Below, piece after piece: positions 6,918-41,374 of a stretch of 64,000 bases of DNA. The notes beneath the pieces are model-generated. The model saw only the letters and a list, made by a program, of their open reading frames with translations, was not told the DNA's origin and did no database searches. A program made the translations under genes and the position numbers. Within the stretch, counting starts at the first letter, position 1. The number at the start of each line of letters is the position of its first letter. Source of the DNA: Candidatus Woesearchaeota archaeon (GTDB lineage Archaea > Nanobdellota > Nanobdellia > Woesearchaeales > JAZDKJ01); NCBI GenBank assembly GCA_043803105.1, contig JAZDKJ010000006.1, positions 364,222-428,221 on the forward strand, read 5' to 3'.

Positions 6918-7044
6918 TGGGCCGGACGAGATTTTCTTTGTTTTTTTTTCCAAGTTGCATTCGAACTCGCGACCACCTGATTGCTTTGCAGCTTAAAAGT
7001 CAGGTGCTCTATTGCCCTTATACTCCAGGCTGAGCTACCGGCCC
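6918..7044 (-). tRNA. tRNA-Lys(UUU), apparently with three introns (D-loop, canonical 37/38, T-loop)
   Basis: Minus strand GGGCCGG-TA-GCTC-AGCCTGG[+14 nt]AGAGC-A-CCTGA-CTTTTA[12-nt intron]A-TCAGG-TGGTC-GCGAG-TTCGAAT[28-nt insertion]CTCGT-CCGGCCC-A. The acceptor, D, anticodon and T stems all pair perfectly or with a single GU. Confidence 0.6.
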
Positions 7045-7059
7045 ATCGTGATTGAAAAA

Positions 7060-7225
7060 CGCCCTGGTCGGGACTTCCAACAACAGACATGCCGTATGAC
7101 ATTTTCAGCTGATTTGAACCCGAGTCGAAGCCTTTTTGCGGTAGCAAACAGTAATTCAACCCTCCCTCTGGTTGAAAAGCCACCTCGACAGGGCTTCATG
7201 ATAGGCCAGACTACACTACCAGGGC
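7060..7225 (-). tRNA. tRNA-Asp(GUC), with a canonical intron (~52 nt) and a T-loop intron (~39 nt)
   Basis: GCCCTGG-TA-GTGT-AGTCTGGCCTATCAT-GAAGCC-CTGTCG[intron]A-GGCTTC-GAC-TCGGG-TTCAAAT[39 nt]CCCGA-CCAGGGC-G. The D-arm resembles archaeal tRNA-Asp/Glu. Confidence 0.6.
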
Positions 7226-7432
7226 TTTGACCTAGTTAAGCCTAATTTAAGCTTTCTAGCCACCAAGCAGTCCACATAGGTCTTCTTAAGCGCATAGAAA
7301 GATTGAATTGGCATGGCCCACCTATCTTCACACCTGTTTATAAAGCTTGTGGTTTTTTCCTGACTTATTCAGGTCTGCTTGAACTTTTGCTTGATTACTT
7401 TCAAATGTTCTGCTCGAATTAAAGCGAGAATA

Positions 7433-7559
7433 TCCCCGAGGCCGGAGTCGAACCAGCAACCTTTCGGTAACGGCTGAGTGTTTTTCACATTCTGCACTGA
7501 GTGCAATATCAAAACACTATCCCTACAGCCGAACGCTCTAGCCATTGAGCTACTCGGGG
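7433..7559 (-). tRNA. tRNA-Tyr(GUA), with a 54-nt canonical intron
   Basis: CCCCGAG-TA-GCTC-AATGGCTA-GAGC-G-TTCGG-CTGTAG[54-nt intron]A-CCGAA-AGGTT-GCTGG-TTCGACT-CCGGC-CTCGGGG-A. The T-arm is nearly identical to that of M. jannaschii tRNA-Tyr. Confidence 0.7.
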
Positions 7560-7563
7560 AAGC

Positions 7564-7632
7564 TTTTTTCCTTAGGAAAAAACCTTGGAAAATATGTTTT
7601 TGCCAAGGCAAAAACGCTGCCTTTAAGGCAGC
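7564..7632 (-). terminator. Three stable hairpins with T/A-rich flanks between the leader element and tRNA-Tyr
   Basis: Plus strand: CTTTTTTCC-TTA-GGAAAAAA at 7564-7582, GTTTTTGCC-AA-GGCAAAAAC at 7596-7615, and GCTGCC-TTTAA-GGCAGC at 7616-7632. Confidence 0.4.
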
Positions 7633-7636
7633 TAAA

Positions 7637-7680
7637 GTTGCGAGCTGACTTTTCAGCTCAGCTATTGAGCTACTCAGGGA
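7637..7680 (-). ncRNA. tRNA-Tyr leader element: copy of the tRNA-Tyr 5' end plus a conserved hairpin
   Basis: Minus strand CCCTGAGTAGCTCAATAGCT matches the tRNA-Tyr 5' end at 18 of 20 nt. It is followed by GAGCTGA-AAAG-TCAGCTC-GCAAC. A TATA box (TTTATAAAAAG, plus 7707-7717) lies ~30 nt upstream. Confidence 0.55.
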
Positions 7681-7777
7681 TAATTCAATGAATAACAAAC
7701 AAGGGTCTTTTTATAAACATTTCTTATCTCTGTGTGTGCTTCTTTCTTCGGAACGACTCAGAATTTTGCTATTGCTA

Positions 7778-10156: not shown

Positions 10157-12328
10157 CTAACTTACCTCTGGCGCAACAAACTGTGAATAATCGTTAACTG
10201 TGTAATCTACCTGTTTTGTCTTGCCGTCGCAGTTATCATCGACAGTGATCTTTCCGCTTAGCCTGCTGCCATCAATGACTGTCTCAGTGATGCTGTTTAC
10301 CTCAAGGTTCTGGTCTGAGAGGAAATCCACCATGCAGTAGAATTTTATTTTGCTGCCCCTTAGGCTGGTTGCTTTCCATCCAAAGTTCCCGTTGCCAATT
10401 ATCCAAGGTCCTTCGTAGTTGGAATGCGTCAAGGGATTGTTGTCAAAGTCCACTGTCACTGTGTTGTCTCCTTCTTTATAGGTTGAGGGCTTTATGACCA
10501 CGTTGCCTTTGGCCAGCATTCCCACCCGATAGTTTCCGCTTCCTATTATCATGCTCTTCATTGTTGGGTATAGGACAGTAGGGTTTGCAGACGCCCCGTT
10601 TATTGATATTGTTATCTCGTCTTTTGGCCTTGGCTGGTAGCGTGTTTCCTGCAACATTTCTTCAGGTGTTTTTCCGCAGCTGCTTCGTAAATATCCATTT
10701 GTCAGATAATAGTTCTCCAGGAATTTTCTTGCAAGCACAAGCTCCACTTCAATGCTGTAATTCTTCAGTTTCTCCAGTTTGTATTCGCTTTTTACAGCAT
10801 CAACAATCGTGCTGTAACCTGCCTTCTGCAACTTAAGCTGGAGCCCTGCGCATTTCGGCAGCTTTAAGGAGGCTCTGCCGCTGGAGGCTGTCTCTCCTGC
10901 ATCGCATTCGTTGATTGTGTTGTTGCATTGGAATCTGACACCAACTCCAGGCAATAATCCTGTTTCATTCGTTGTGACTACACTAGCCTGCGTGCTTACG
11001 TTGTTGCAGTCAAAGACACTTTTCATGGTCTCGCTTCCGAAAAATGCTGTCAGGTTCACTTCGCTATATGGATTCTGTCCAGTGCACTGCCTGTTCTGGT
11101 TTCCGCACAGGAAGAGTTGCATCGGGAAATAAAACGAGAAGCCCTGTTTTTCCTGCACCAAATTACCAATAATCTTGGCAGAATCGCTGTCTGTGATTTT
11201 TATCACCACAGGATGTGTCAAGAAGTACTTGAACCTGTAATCATAAATGCAGAAGCTTGGGAGGAATGGTATGCTTGTCTGCGATTCCTTGTCCGGGCTA
11301 ATCACGTTGCCGCTTGTGGGTTTGATGTCAAATTTGTTATCTGATTGTGCAGGGTAACTGAATTCTACGCTTATTGAGCTAAGATTTTCGAAATAATTCC
11401 TGATAAAGCTGTCATAAACTCCCTGGACTGAAGCGTCGTTTGAAATCACTCTTTCAAACTTTGTTCCGGCCATCTTTAGGTATGGAAAATTTTTTGAAAG
11501 TATGCCTTCAAGATTTTCCTTGACTTCATCTTTCGTCCATGTTACGTATTTGCAATCTGTGCTTGAGTCAGAGAAGCTGAACGGCGGAAGGTCTTTTGCT
11601 CCCTTTTCTGCCCCGGTATAGCTGTACAGAGAAATCAGTGACTTTGCGTGGTCTTCAAGATAAGTGTCTGCAAACTCTCTTGTGACTAATTCCATAGCTA
11701 TCTCATGGATCAGCGCCAGGTTTACATCCACCTGATAATTGTAGTTGTCCACTTCATACTGTTTTTCGTTCTGTGTGATCTGGATTGGCCAGTGAAGATC
11801 AATTGTTGCCTGTTTGCCGAACCTCACTGTGGTGTTTATTGTTCCAGTCTTGATAACATAACTTTTTTTTCTGAAGACCTCAAAGTCCGTGCATCTCGGC
11901 AGGTTTTCTGTGATGTATCTAGCTAGCTCATTTTGCATGTAATCTGTTGAAGGTACAGAAATCGAATCTTCGGTGATCCAGTAAGGGACCTTGTTCTTTC
12001 CTGTGGCGTCAATAACCTGAATCATGCTCCCAGTTTTAACCACAGTCCTATCGCCGCTTATGCCTGTTGTTTGTAGCTCGGTAGGAATGTATATGAACCC
12101 CGCCTGAAGCCCAAGGATTTCTATTCCTGAATTTGCATAATCACTTAGACACTGTTCCACATATGTCTTAACCTGTTGAGCAGGCTCTGCAAGTTGTAAT
12201 GCCCTTACCTGTTCGACCTGGATTGGCTGCTCTGTTGTTCTTGCCCAGCTAAAGTAGAAGATTGCCGCAGCTATCAGCATGATTATTCCGATGATTATGA
12301 ATATGGTTATCTGTCCTCTTTTTTCCAT
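10157..12328 (-). CDS. large class-III signal peptide (archaeal type IV pilin-like) surface protein
   Basis: N-terminus MEKRGQITIFIIIGIIMLIAAAIFYF has a short basic n-region and an R-G|Q site followed by a hydrophobic helix, as in PibD/FlaK substrates. 723 aa. Confidence 0.5.
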   Translation of the reverse strand: MEKRGQITIFIIIGIIMLIAAAIFYFSWARTTEQPIQVEQVRALQLAEPAQQVKTYVEQCLSDYANSGIEILGLQAGFIYIPTELQTTGISGDRTVVKTGSMIQVIDATGKNKVPYWITEDSISVPSTDYMQNELARYITENLPRCTDFEVFRKKSYVIKTGTINTTVRFGKQATIDLHWPIQITQNEKQYEVDNYNYQVDVNLALIHEIAMELVTREFADTYLEDHAKSLISLYSYTGAEKGAKDLPPFSFSDSSTDCKYVTWTKDEVKENLEGILSKNFPYLKMAGTKFERVISNDASVQGVYDSFIRNYFENLSSISVEFSYPAQSDNKFDIKPTSGNVISPDKESQTSIPFLPSFCIYDYRFKYFLTHPVVIKITDSDSAKIIGNLVQEKQGFSFYFPMQLFLCGNQNRQCTGQNPYSEVNLTAFFGSETMKSVFDCNNVSTQASVVTTNETGLLPGVGVRFQCNNTINECDAGETASSGRASLKLPKCAGLQLKLQKAGYSTIVDAVKSEYKLEKLKNYSIEVELVLARKFLENYYLTNGYLRSSCGKTPEEMLQETRYQPRPKDEITISINGASANPTVLYPTMKSMIIGSGNYRVGMLAKGNVVIKPSTYKEGDNTVTVDFDNNPLTHSNYEGPWIIGNGNFGWKATSLRGSKIKFYCMVDFLSDQNLEVNSITETVIDGSRLSGKITVDDNCDGKTKQVDYTVNDYSQFVAPEVS

Positions 12329-29468: not shown

Positions 29469-29637
29469 GATTCAAACTAACTTATCAGGGTATTTAAAAA
29501 TTGTGTTGTGTTCATGCCTGCAAAAAGCTGCCTTGCCAGTCAGATTGACAGGCTCAGGCAAAAAGCATTAACTTTATAAATCACTGGTCGGCTCTGTACA
29601 ATAATCAAGGAGCAGTACACTTGACCTTACAATCATT

Positions 29638-29672
29638 GGGGCTGCGGGGGAGCTGCGAAGTCAGCTCGCACC
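29638..29672 (+). ncRNA. tRNA-Pro(UGG) leader element: copy of the tRNA 5' end and flank, plus a conserved hairpin
   Basis: GGGGCTGCGGGGGAGCT matches the tRNA-Pro 5' end at 15 of 17 nt. The repeat extends about 17 nt into the 5' flank, about 29 of 36 identical overall. It is followed by GAGCTG-CGAAGT-CAGCTC-GCACC. Confidence 0.55.
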
Positions 29673-29710
29673 TTCGTGGGACATAAAGTCCCCCTGACAT
29701 CACAATCAAT

Positions 29711-29827
29711 GGGGCTGTGGGGTAGCTTGGTCTAGCCTATCTGGTTTGGGGCAATGCAAAAAACCAGATGACCCCGGTTCGAAAGTTTTATAAAAGGCTG
29801 ATTAACTCGAAAATCCGGGCAGCCCCA
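29711..29827 (+). tRNA. tRNA-Pro(UGG), with a 12-nt canonical intron and a T-loop insertion of about 30 nt
   Basis: GGGGCTG-TG-GGGT-AGCTTGGTCTA-GCCT-A-TCTGG-TTTGGG[GCAATGCAAAAA]A-CCAGA-TGA-CCCGG-T-loop plus insertion-CCGGG-CAGCCCC-A. Confidence 0.6.
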
Positions 29828-29977
29828 CTCATGTTCGTGGTTGGTCTTCCCAATGGGAAGACGCACCCTTTAGGGTGCCGATGCAGTCAACAGGCATTTC
29901 TGTTGATCCGGGCCGCCCCCACTCAGTTTTGTTGGCTAAAAACATGGGAAAACGCTGCACAAAGGGCAATTCGCAAA

Positions 29978-39094: not shown

Positions 39095-39400
39095 GTCAGG
39101 GATTTTCACTTGATGAGATTTGAACTGTCAGAAATTCACTGAATTTCTGAGCATGCTCGGAAACATAGTTTCCGACACCTGGAGACCTGTGATGGTCAAT
39201 TGCTTTTCAGGCAACCGCGATACCCGATTACGCTAGCCCGGCCTCGCACATTTCTAAATTGACCTGAACCTTAATATGTTCAATTGAGAATTTTCCGTAA
39301 GTTCTGCGACAAAACCGAGCAAAATCTTATATACCAGAATGCTTACAAACTTTATGACCTGCGATTTAATTACCTGATTACGCGAGCCCTTTTTATATAG
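39095..39400 (-). repeat. tRNA-derived fragments: two direct copies of GGGCT(C/A)GCGTAATC(A/G)GGTA, the second continuing as a tRNA-Phe(GAA)-like 5' half
   Basis: Minus strand, copy 1 begins at 39388 immediately after ACTATATAAAAA. Copy 2 at about 39247 folds as GCCGGGC-TA-GCGT-AATCGGGTA-TCGC-G-GTTGC-CTGAAAA-GCAAT. No matching 3' acceptor strand was found. Confidence 0.35.
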
Positions 39401-39452
39401 TATTTTCTGTAGATTTGACCAATGGCTCAAGTAGCCTTGGCCAGAAATAAAA

Positions 39453-39654
39453 TGGGGCTGCTGGGATTTCCATGCTTCTAGGACGGTCTTTTGGCATCAG
39501 CCAAAAGCCTTTTCCCAGGTTTTTGCATATTGCAAAAAGCTGTTTGGACCCAGATTAGGAGGTTTTCCGCTGAAAACCTTAGGTCAAATGCCCCGAACCT
39601 CCAGTGATAGTTTCTCGAAGAGTTTCTCTCTTCTCCAAGTTACACTACAGCCCC
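39453..39654 (-). tRNA. tRNA-Pro(CGG), heavily interrupted (D-loop, canonical 37/38, and T-arm/variable insertions; 202 nt)
   Basis: GGGGCTG-TA-GTGT-AACTTGG[about 25 nt]ACTATCAC-T-GGAGG-TTCGGG[28 nt]A-CCTCC-TAAT...CTGGG...[insertion]...CCCAG-CAGCCCC-A. All four stems pair. Exact intron boundaries in the 3' half are uncertain. Confidence 0.5.
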
Positions 39655-40989: not shown

Positions 40990-41079
40990 TTTTATTCCTT
41001 TTTGTATGTTTATTCTAGATAGTTAATATTAGAATACAAAATTTCAGGATTAGCCTAAAATGTTTTATGCTTCTTTTCG

Positions 41080-41183
41080 AATTCCGGTCGGACGCATTCT
41101 GGTTTCATCCTCAAGCGTAAGTGATAGTTGCTTCAGGCAACCGAGCGAACTGGTTGGCGCTGGCCAAGTTACACTACAGCCCC
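41080..41183 (-). pseudogene. truncated tRNA-like copy sharing the tRNA-Pro(CGG) 5' exon segments
   Basis: GGGGCTGTAGTGTAACTTGG[35 nt]ACTATCAC, then a different anticodon-arm-like hairpin (TACGC-TTGAGGA...GCGTC). No 3' acceptor strand before the tyrS stop. Confidence 0.4.
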
Positions 41184-41290
41184 GTTGATTGTTATTGTTT
41201 CGCGAAGCTCACAAGAAACCTGATAGTTTCTTGGGAGTCCCAAAAAACTTCAAGTTTTTTGTGACGAAAGGCGACTGAAAGGAGTGTAAA

Positions 41291-41330
41291 GGTGCCAGCT
41301 GACTTCTCAGCTGAGTAGCACTACAGCCCC
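41291..41330 (-). ncRNA. third copy of the leader element: tRNA 5'-end copy plus conserved hairpin
   Basis: GGGGCTGTAGTG-CTACT-CAGCTG-AGAAGT-CAGCTG-GCACC. An AT-rich box (AAATTTTTTAAG) sits about 30 nt upstream. It is followed by the AAAAAAC-TTCAA-GTTTTTT and GAAAC-TATCAG-GTTTC hairpins, then the tRNA-like copy at 41183. Confidence 0.5.
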
Positions 41331-41374
41331 AATTACTCAAACCAATTCGGTCGATTGCTTAAAAAATTTGTGCT

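Follow-up and report, generated by a model that had tools for sequence, protein, structure and literature searches.

A 64,000-nt stretch of a Candidatus Woesearchaeota archaeon genome (contig JAZDKJ010000006.1, positions 364,222 to 428,221; hereafter the window) carries three copies of a short hairpin-led motif, each lying directly behind a copy of the 5′ end of the tRNA or tRNA-like sequence downstream of it. We consider it probable that these motifs belong to a family of non-autonomous, tRNA-gene-targeting, intron-like mobile elements carried by contigs labelled Woesearchaeota or Nanoarchaeota (DPANN archaea), with the 5′ copy representing a target duplication. Among several possibilities, a sequence-only reading of this DNA had raised the footprint of a small element that targets tRNA genes, and the distribution, duplication and context evidence presented here backs that suggestion.

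Three hairpin-led elements beside tRNA genes

Three near-identical cores of the form (S)AGCUG-N2AAGU-CAGCU(S)-GCAMC are present in the window (Table 1). The tRNA or tRNA-like sequence lying 73-147 nt downstream of each has a copy of its 5′ end placed ahead of the core. Reading of the sequence placed the cores and their 5′ copies nearly to the nucleotide where they had first been described. This three-locus motif is not a product of chance, because AAGTCAGCTSGCAMC occurs exactly three times in the window, AGCTG-N4-6-CAGCT is found four times against an expectation of 0.46, and a covariance model (CM) of the core scores 43-46 bits at the three sites and 8 bits at the next best site in the window. 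Rfam searches (gathering threshold or E ≤ 10 for the window, E ≤ 1 for six loci) returned tRNA only, with no family for the element. The neighbouring genes in the window are housekeeping genes (RpoB'', eRF1, L37ae, TyrRS and aIF5B), and no transposase, integrase or reverse transcriptase was found among the genes near any of the three elements. At the protein level, eRF1 and TyrRS of the window share 100% identity with proteins of a MAG labelled Candidatus Woesearchaeota. Calls of intron-rich tRNA genes combined ARAGORN with manual parsing, and bulge-helix-bulge (BHB) motifs were assessed with a home-made scanner and by inspection.

At the Tyr locus, the copy ends 1 nt from the core and stands behind a TATA-like box that we interpret, from its sequence and position, as the native tRNA-Tyr promoter, now located ahead of what would be the left copy of a target duplication. 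The box TTTATAAAA is also found ahead of the first copy at the corresponding loci of two relatives (L082 and L083). The three stable, T-run-associated hairpins previously seen between this element and tRNA-Tyr (H2-H4) are borne out by folding of the leader, which has a minimum free energy (MFE) of -42.9 kcal/mol and z = -4.9 relative to shuffled sequence. They make up the 3′ part of a Tyr element subfamily and recur in the L082 units with compensatory stem changes. Two of them, 7616-7632 plus a T5 run and 7596-7615, are predicted to be terminator-like by score, with a GC-rich stem and a T-run. A terminator/antiterminator switch was considered and rejected, as the alternative pairing available in the window (AAGUCAGCU:AGCUGCCUU) is not kept in L082 unit B on sequence comparison.

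At the tRNA-Pro(UGG) locus, the TATA box lies ~55 nt upstream of the copy, as opposed to ~30 nt at the Tyr and third loci, the two cases for which such a box had originally been noted. A degenerate sequence at 29596-29618 sits at the canonical distance from this box and may be an older copy of the tRNA-Pro 5′ end. A second insertion follows the same tRNA gene on its 3′ side and includes, in antisense orientation, an H1-variant hairpin (CAACAG-AAAUGC-CUGUUG) and GGCACC; this CAACAG/CUGUUG variant also occurs in L082 unit A.

The third element had been placed before a Pro-like tRNA copy. The downstream sequence is indeed Pro-like, but it is a truncated relic rather than a complete gene, with a D-loop insert and an anticodon loop reading TTGAGGA; its T arm is poor, and it lacks a 3′ end ahead of the TyrRS gene. 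Its first 20 nt match exactly the start of the real tRNA-Pro(CGG), a three-intron gene at 39453-39654. The closest TyrRS homologues in relatives are only 72-73% identical at this locus. A suspected fourth instance lacking the hairpin also holds up, as a copy of the tRNA-Phe 5′ region with no core is present at 39371-39389; the sequence between this copy and tRNA-Phe is unrelated to the element and contains no core hairpin. This shows that the duplication phenomenon is not tied to one hairpin, and suggests that other small elements produce the same type of duplication.

An element family with a conserved structure

A scan of a species-representative genome collection with the exact 22-nt pattern AGCTGNNAAGTCAGCTSGCAMC identified 38 stretches, nearly all of them labelled Woesearchaeota or Nanoarchaeota, with ~17 copies of the core in a single metagenome-assembled genome (MAG). 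Four matches labelled as bacterial MAGs look like chance. The same pattern retrieved 35 stretches from metagenome contigs, which have no taxon labels, and none from viral contigs. The core together with a second conserved hairpin occurs more than 60 times on contigs labelled Woesearchaeota or Nanoarchaeota, and near-identical cores (43-49 bits) recur in numerous MAGs and metagenome contigs. The element is also present on contigs labelled “Omnitrophota chromosome” and “Methanosarcinales” (L037, which is CP070655.1, and L003/L013/L031). In L037 it adjoins an archaeal-style intron-containing tRNA. These labels are probably binning or annotation errors; otherwise the element has a wider host range.

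The covariation of the closing base pair observed in the window proved to be real and general: across 38 distinct cores, the H1 hairpin is closed by C-G in 27 and by G-C in 11, with no mismatches, and the 5′ partner of this pair (the base before AGCUG) lay outside the search pattern. Diverged copies recognised by the model or by synteny have further compensatory stems, such as GGCUG/CAGCC in L056 and GAGCGU/ACGCUC in L082 unit C. From its 5′ end, the element comprises H1 (6 bp with an NNAAGU hexaloop), GCACC-UU, a second hairpin (GYGGGUUUCGC..GCUCAAGCCCRC or variants) that is present in most copies, and a variable 3′ part. A consensus fold of the intron copies described below shows compensatory changes in 6 of the 17 predicted pairs of H1 and hairpin 2. 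The element is non-coding and ~60-130 nt in size; it begins with a hairpin and ends in a variable AT-rich tail, and no terminal inverted repeats were found at these ends.

The element as an intron, as an extragenic insertion and within transposable elements

In other tRNA genes, the predicted splice products indicate that the element is a genuine splicing-endonuclease intron. It occupies the D-loop in three loci (L043, L045 and L034) and position 59/60 of the T-loop in L054, L056 (two tRNAs), L064 (four tRNAs on one 10-kb contig), L065/67, L069 (two tRNAs) and L071. The T-loop introns are 79-94 nt long, and their removal at GGUUCRAA|...GAAAG|UCC yields full tRNAs detectable by ARAGORN in 9 of 11 cases. 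Inspection of the predicted BHB core revealed an outer helix formed by the T-stem, a central helix of UUCA:UGAA or UUCG:CGAA, 3-nt bulges and an irregular third helix. One intron fits many tRNAs because its conserved 3′ module (..UGAAAG) pairs with the near-universal T-loop sequence. The possibility that the intron 3′ ends are decayed target duplications was rejected, since the module CUUGCAGARUGAAAG is common to three introns in different tRNAs, whatever the exon, which makes its resemblance to one exon a coincidence. The window elements, by comparison, lie outside a complete tRNA (Tyr and Pro(UGG)) or a relic and do not interrupt a tRNA. Nor do they appear to be parts of a split or permuted tRNA: no complementary partner or BHB was found within the window, and an intact tRNA adjoins the fragment at the Tyr and Pro(UGG) loci.

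Direct repeats around the element were assessed by comparing the 80 nt upstream with the 300 nt downstream of each core, using the 99th percentile of cross-locus controls as a cutoff. A repeat above this cutoff flanks 28 of 49 non-redundant cores, and in all but one of them the distance between the end of the left copy and H1 is 0-6 nt. The repeats are 12-64 nt long with no modal length, and extend from a loop to the gene terminus and slightly past it. About 21 of them are tRNA gene ends: seven are sense 5′ ends (the three window loci, L015, L018, L020 and L058) and 13-14 are antisense 3′ ends (L014, L021, L027, L029, L036, L037, L039, L041, L042, L047, L049, L050 and L053). The antisense duplications usually break in or just past the T-loop or T-arm, and all of those that break in the T-loop are at least 20 nt long, which is the distance from T-loop to 3′ end. 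The truncated copy is always on the hairpin side; in 15 non-redundant loci ARAGORN detected an intact tRNA, which always lay towards the tail of the element and never towards its hairpin. Other targets of the element are intergenic.

Two further sources of the copies were tried and rejected. Reverse transcription primed by tRNA and stopping at m1A58 would not produce the antisense copies, which are without a CCA complement and include genomic 3′ flank, and the differences between copy and target are not adenine-specific, as the template and variable repeats of a diversity-generating retroelement would require.

The sequence-only reading had also considered a generic dispersed palindrome with no connection to tRNA genes. 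The element is dispersed, being found antisense downstream of many tRNAs, at non-tRNA sites, in a long open reading frame (ORF) and in miniature inverted-repeat transposable elements (MITEs), but it is strongly linked to tRNAs and most extragenic copies feature the duplication. The ORF case (L013, 6400-6700) consists of an antisense element with a 54-nt duplication that leaves the surrounding frame, longer than 738 codons and continuing beyond the locus, unbroken; it may be a tolerated in-frame insertion in a giant protein. The MITE cases come from the JACQXV MAG, where the core lies inside two MITE families (L001-L033 of JACQXV010, for example L010 7421-7700 and L016 3150-3530, reverse) whose terminal inverted repeats belong to the carrier MITEs. 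Family A is ~230 nt long and begins GTATTTGTTTAGC; family B is ~370 nt long and begins GGCGTTATTGAAAAGCTC. Family A also occurs without the core, which suggests that a MITE acquired the core by insertion and afterwards carried it along as it spread.

Empty sites and tandem amplification in relatives

The eRF1/L37ae locus of three relatives (L074, L079/L080 and L081; eRF1 76-78% identical) contains the CGAAACCTTTATAAA promoter, 23-29 nt of spacer, the orthologous tRNA-Pro(UGG) and then L37ae. Neither the 5′ copy with its hairpin nor the 3′ duplicate that occupies 29906-29926 in the window is present in any of the three, and sequence comparison therefore identifies their Pro(UGG) loci as empty sites. 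The whole 29828-29926 insertion is missing in these relatives, where the 3′ end of the tRNA lies 6-25 nt from the L37ae start codon. A fourth relative, L077, has the same Pro(UGG) promoter box on a contig that ends ahead of the tRNA.

The rpoH/rpoB locus, which contains tRNA-Tyr, presents a different picture. L083 (RpoB'' 88% identical) has one unit, consisting of the copy and a core scoring 32 bits, followed by an unrelated tail. L082 (RpoB'' 91% identical) has three tandem units at 640-1062 before tRNA-Tyr, each composed of a tRNA 5′ copy, an H1-type hairpin, GCA(A/C)C and then the three T/A-run hairpins of the window. The three L082 units have different H1 stems with one geometry and so form a natural covariation series. 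L084 (RpoB'' 86% identical) has no tRNA-Tyr at this locus. Tandem arrays of the element are found in L003, L058 and L015 as well as in L082.

A proposed route of insertion and its alternatives

We propose that the element inserts within tRNA genes or next to them, with the D- or T-loop as its target, in either strand and oriented to the local one; the T-loop sequence TTCRAA reads nearly the same on both strands. An insertion that lands in sense and acquires a BHB, possibly a relaxed one, would persist as an intron. Any other insertion would survive only with a long target duplication (12-64 nt, reaching past the gene end) that spares one intact gene copy towards the tail, the truncated copy being the one directly against H1. 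The strict polarity of the copies and the antisense T-loop duplications of at least 20 nt would then arise because only spliceable or gene-sparing products survive. The three window elements would be of the duplication type, with the native promoter of the tRNA kept ahead of the left copy, where it could drive either a short transcript of copy and hairpin that probably stops at the T-runs, or a long leader removed by RNase P. At the Tyr locus, we speculate that the T5/T6 runs stop most transcripts and that tRNA-Tyr is transcribed either by read-through or from the AT-rich, promoter-like ACATATTTT, ~30-38 nt upstream of tRNA +1. The element itself would have no host function, including in tRNA maturation. 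Unequal recombination between the flanking direct repeats would generate tandem arrays and maintain identity between the copy and the tRNA 5′ end.

The 5′ boundary of the extragenic copies coincides with the 5′ splice site of the intron, while the 3′ boundary is variable. This would fit an archaeal “introner” that spreads through excised intron RNA and RNA-templated insertion, which we raise purely as a hypothesis.

Several observations weigh against the proposal of a mobile, tRNA-targeting element. We know of no enzyme that makes target duplications of variable length in the range of 12-64 nt, and no transposase, integrase or reverse transcriptase gene is adjacent to the element in any locus examined. 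The duplication is seen as an end product, from which we infer that it arose at insertion, and no pair of filled and empty sites similar enough to give the exact pre-insertion sequence was found among the relatives. The T-loop introns have no flanking duplication, so the intron and duplication types of copy might have separate origins. The census was also biased by its single exact seed and by its coverage of genome fragments. In addition, the Tyr unit is common to genomes whose RpoB'' proteins are 88-91% identical, its copy matches the tRNA of the same genome at acceptor-stem position 6, where the base is A, T or C, and the H1-H4 stems show compensatory changes; such long persistence with some constraint hints at more than junk. 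L082 unit C and L083 have older mismatches in common at positions 19-26, which, together with the tracking of position 6, indicates that the Tyr insertion is old and that its first 15-18 nt evolve in concert with the tRNA. This concerted evolution is explained most simply by unequal crossing-over between direct repeats, as documented by the four tandem arrays. Even so, the concerted evolution, the persistence at the Tyr locus and the compensatory hairpin changes leave some room for function.

A functional role is the basis of one alternative, in which the unit is a leader or small RNA (a selected cis element, an insulator or terminator cassette, a 5′-half decoy or a tRNA-matching regulator) kept to control tRNA expression or maturation. 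Several observations at the Tyr locus speak for it: three genomes have the unit in the orthologous position, with the native TATA box directly ahead of it, the copy is identical to tRNA positions 1-15/18 despite lineage-specific tRNA changes, the H1-H4 stems have changed in compensatory fashion, and the stable fold (z = -4.9) includes terminator-like hairpins with T-runs. We nevertheless regard this alternative as unlikely. Three relatives with the same promoter have no such unit at tRNA-Pro(UGG), the third window copy precedes a dead tRNA relic, and the element is found in antisense behind tRNA 3′ ends, at non-tRNA sites, in an ORF and in MITEs. The identity of copy and tRNA is explicable by unequal crossing-over in tandem units such as those of L082, L003 and L058, and the junctions have no BHB. 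A more specific version, put forward by the sequence-only reading, was a conserved tRNA leader serving as a processing signal, for example for 5′-leader removal by the splicing endonuclease. A BHB scan of the three window loci found neither an in-register junction between copy and tRNA nor a cut site at tRNA +1, while the same scanner recovered both the 37/38 and 59/60 introns of tRNA-Pro(UGG). Leader processing fails as an explanation because of this absence, because the element is dispensable for tRNA-Pro(UGG) in the relatives, and because it occurs in contexts without tRNA transcription through it.

It is rather improbable that the loci are relics of integrase-mediated integration that were later almost wholly deleted, with the conserved hairpin as the attachment-site-proximal arm of one element family. 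SSV-type and pNOB8-type integration classically leaves direct repeats of tRNA ends on both sides of the inserted DNA, the repeats here span from a loop to the gene terminus and slightly past it in the manner of att identity blocks, and Caldiarchaeum offers a precedent in a tRNA-Thr 5′ fragment accompanied by a 1.8-kb recombinase element (PMC3293823). Such an origin would have to account for more than 25 independent loci with just ~60-130 nt between the repeats and a single 5′ boundary, yet with no integrase fragment in the loci examined and no matches in viral contigs. It would also have to explain the pairing of one element with many tRNAs and non-tRNA targets, whereas an attP site is element-specific, and the occurrence of the same element as a precise intron without repeats.

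We are similarly doubtful that no mobility was involved, with the units originating locally from ancestral intron-containing tRNA genes by tandem duplication or recombination (for instance when a copy with an intron came to lie beside one without, and then decayed), and with vertical descent and unequal crossing-over as their only means of spread. In favour of this history are the presence of tandem arrays in L082, L003, L058 and L015, the inheritance of the Tyr unit across species, and the fact that elements and introns are homologous in H1, hairpin 2 and a portion of the 3′ module. It leaves unexplained the antisense copies behind tRNA 3′ ends and the non-tRNA, MITE and ORF copies, and is at odds with near-identical cores (43-49 bits) across many MAGs and metagenome contigs and with empty Pro(UGG) sites in relatives that point to gain.

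Finally, it is highly improbable that the copy is a programmable guide and the hairpin a scaffold, by analogy with the 5′-guide RNAs of IscB and Cas9, with RNA made from the captured tRNA promoter directing a candidate RNA-guided DNA-binding or DNA-cutting enzyme to the tRNA gene: although the promoter precedes the copy, the order is always target copy then hairpin in either orientation to the gene, and copy and target co-evolve, the copies vary from 12 to 64 nt and often include non-genic flank, mismatches are concentrated next to the hairpin, the expected position of a seed, no protein gene is associated in any locus examined, no Rfam RNA family is similar, and intron-type copies have no guide-like segment. 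If true, it would imply homing or retention of the element and would explain the lasting identity of copy and tRNA.

Relation to known systems

A close parallel to the family proposed here is reportedly provided by Thermoproteales, in which Fujishima et al. are said to have described, in Mol Biol Evol in 2010, non-canonical BHB tRNA introns “transposing” between tRNA genes. As in that case, the present introns are short, non-coding, located at the D-loop and T-loop (59/60) and presumably removed by the splicing endonuclease, with one intron sequence in many tRNA genes of one genome, which implies mobility. The present family differs in its defined hairpin-led 5′ module and in also being extragenic, in both orientations, with long target duplications; none of the window copies is an intron. 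In DPANN archaea, heavy disruption of tRNA genes is to be expected (PMC5829648).

In Caldiarchaeum subterraneum, a tRNA-Thr 5′ fragment and a 1.8-kb recombinase element lie upstream of an intact gene (Sugahara et al. 2012, PMC3293823), and intron gain through insertion of a mobile element was proposed in the same study. The presence of a tRNA end as a direct repeat, with the intact gene across the inserted DNA, is shared by this locus, by SSV-type and pNOB8-type integration and by ~21 loci here. The Caldiarchaeum insert is 1.8 kb with a recombinase and a fixed att repeat; in the present family, the insert is 60-130 nt with no ORF or gene, the repeat is 12-64 nt and the targets are many.

Bacterial IStrons (PMC4227781) and introners are likewise selfish insertions, made harmless because the host or the insertion itself splices them out of the RNA, and their many near-identical copies generate introns on a large scale. 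They differ from the present element in that splicing here would depend on the archaeal protein endonuclease acting at a BHB, not on the spliceosome or a group I ribozyme, no transposase is known here, and unspliceable insertions would be rescued by target duplication rather than lost. Introners and IStrons are best seen as functional analogies, not relatives. Introners, reportedly described by Huff, Zilberman and Roy in 2016, are transposon-derived spliceosomal introns of eukaryotes.

Like MITEs and the repetitive extragenic palindromic sequences and bacterial interspersed mosaic elements (REP/BIME), the element is small, non-coding, multi-copy, hairpin-rich, intergenic and sometimes tandem, with terminator-like hairpins. 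It differs from these in being strongly targeted to tRNA loops and in also being an intron, and from MITEs and insertion sequence (IS)-type elements in having neither terminal inverted repeats nor a target duplication of fixed length (12-64 nt). There are many copies (up to ~17 in one MAG), and no transposase is adjacent in the loci seen. OMEGA-type guide RNAs, which accompany IscB or TnpB, are a poor match: Rfam gives none here, and the neighbours are housekeeping genes rather than iscB or tnpB. In the literature searched, we found no description of a tiny gene-less element with a fixed hairpin-led 5′ module that, across Woesearchaeota and in either orientation, can be a splice-competent intron in some places and in others an extragenic insertion accompanied by long target duplications of variable length.

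The gain of archaeal tRNA introns, their pile-up at few loop positions and the fragmentation of tRNA genes are open questions that have been argued mostly from intron similarity. Here, one element occurs in three states (a spliceable T- or D-loop intron, an extragenic insertion with a duplicated tRNA end, and tandem arrays) and empty sites are available, so intron gain and the formation of tRNA fragments can be put to a direct test in DPANN archaea. For genome annotation, the 5′ copies can be a source of error in calling tRNA genes and promoters.

Features of the window and further observations

Table 1. Elements, tRNA copies, promoters and tRNA genes of the window (positions counted from the first nucleotide of the 64,000-nt stretch)
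Feature	Position	Strand	Basis
TATA-like box TTTATAAAAAG, Tyr locus	7707-7717	-	sequence; ~30 nt upstream of 5′ copy
Copy of tRNA-Tyr positions 1-20 (18/20 identical)	7660-7679	-	local alignment score above 99th percentile of cross-locus controls
Core, H1 GAGCUG-AAAAGU-CAGCUC then GCAAC	7637-7659	-	CM 43.3 bits; H1 present in MFE fold
T/A-run-flanked hairpins H2 (7616-7632), H3 (7596-7615) and H4 (7566-7592)	7566-7632	-	fold
tRNA-Tyr(GUA), intact gene (putative target), 54-nt canonical intron	7433-7559	-	Rfam 54.6 bits; ARAGORN -i
Conserved promoter of tRNA-Pro(UGG) (B recognition element (BRE)/TATA), CTTTATAAATCA	29572-29583	+	same box in L074, L079, L081 and L077
Degenerate, possibly older copy GTACAATAATCAA|GGAGCAGTAC (flank and tRNA-Pro 5′ end)	29596-29618	+	sequence reading
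Copy of ~10 nt of 5′ flank and tRNA-Pro(UGG) positions 1-12	29629-29649	+	36-nt alignment with mismatches; ends 1 nt from core
Core, H1 GAGCUG-CGAAGU-CAGCUC and GCACC	29650-29672	+	CM 43.4 bits
Second hairpin GUGGGAC-AUAAA-GUCCCCC	29676-29694	+	sequence
tRNA-Pro(UGG), intact gene (putative target), 37/38 and T-loop 59/60 introns	29711-29827	+	manual parse; both introns recovered by BHB scan
Second insertion, 3′ of tRNA-Pro(UGG)	29828-29926	+	78-nt insert (29828-29905), then duplicate of tRNA 3′ end and flank (29906-29926)
TATA-like box upstream of third element	41357-41369	-	sequence; ~30 nt ahead of copy
Copy of Pro-type tRNA 5′ end	41313-41330	-	sequence; direct-repeat test
Core CAGCUG-AGAAGU-CAGCUG GCACC	41291-41313	-	CM 45.6 bits
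Truncated Pro-like tRNA relic	41073-41183	-	manual parse
Copy of tRNA-Phe 5′ region (17/19), no core	39371-39389	-	~130 nt upstream of gene start at 39242
tRNA genes overlooked by standard tools, Asp(GUC) and Lys-like	6918-7225	-	
tRNA genes overlooked by standard tools, Pro(CGG) and Phe(GAA)	39221-39654	-	
tRNA gene overlooked by standard tools, Pro(UGG)	29711-29827	+	

The window contains at least six tRNA genes, of which standard tools report only tRNA-Tyr. Those overlooked are Asp(GUC) at 7060-7225, a Lys-like gene at 6918-7044, Pro(UGG), Pro(CGG) and Phe(GAA), and all have two or three introns (D-loop, 37/38 and T-loop 59/60). The T-loop intron of tRNA-Asp (7074-7112) starts with UCAGCUGAAAAUGUCA, a decayed version of the core.

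At the Pro(UGG) locus (29603-29710), three Pro-type 5′ ends are each immediately preceded by a short flank (ACAATCAAT/ACAATCATT/ACAATAATCAA), which is found again upstream of the relic start at 41183 (41184-41200). It is not in the orthologous flank of the relatives, and may belong either to a repeated unit or to the 3′ end of an element.

A weak Rfam match to the C/D-box snoRNA SNORD29, below the gathering threshold, at 11905-11968 on the plus strand (31 bits, E = 0.03) is possibly an archaeal C/D small RNA. Between tRNA-Tyr and tRNA-Asp, a strong TTTATAAA promoter is followed by a conserved stretch of ~100 nt containing GGGCCATGCCAATTCAATCTTTCTATG (~7240-7350, minus strand). Both are kept in L082 (~1190-1330), in L083 (~1360-1480) and in L084 (~1340-1470), which has no tRNA-Tyr, and the stretch may be a small RNA or a tRNA-Asp leader.

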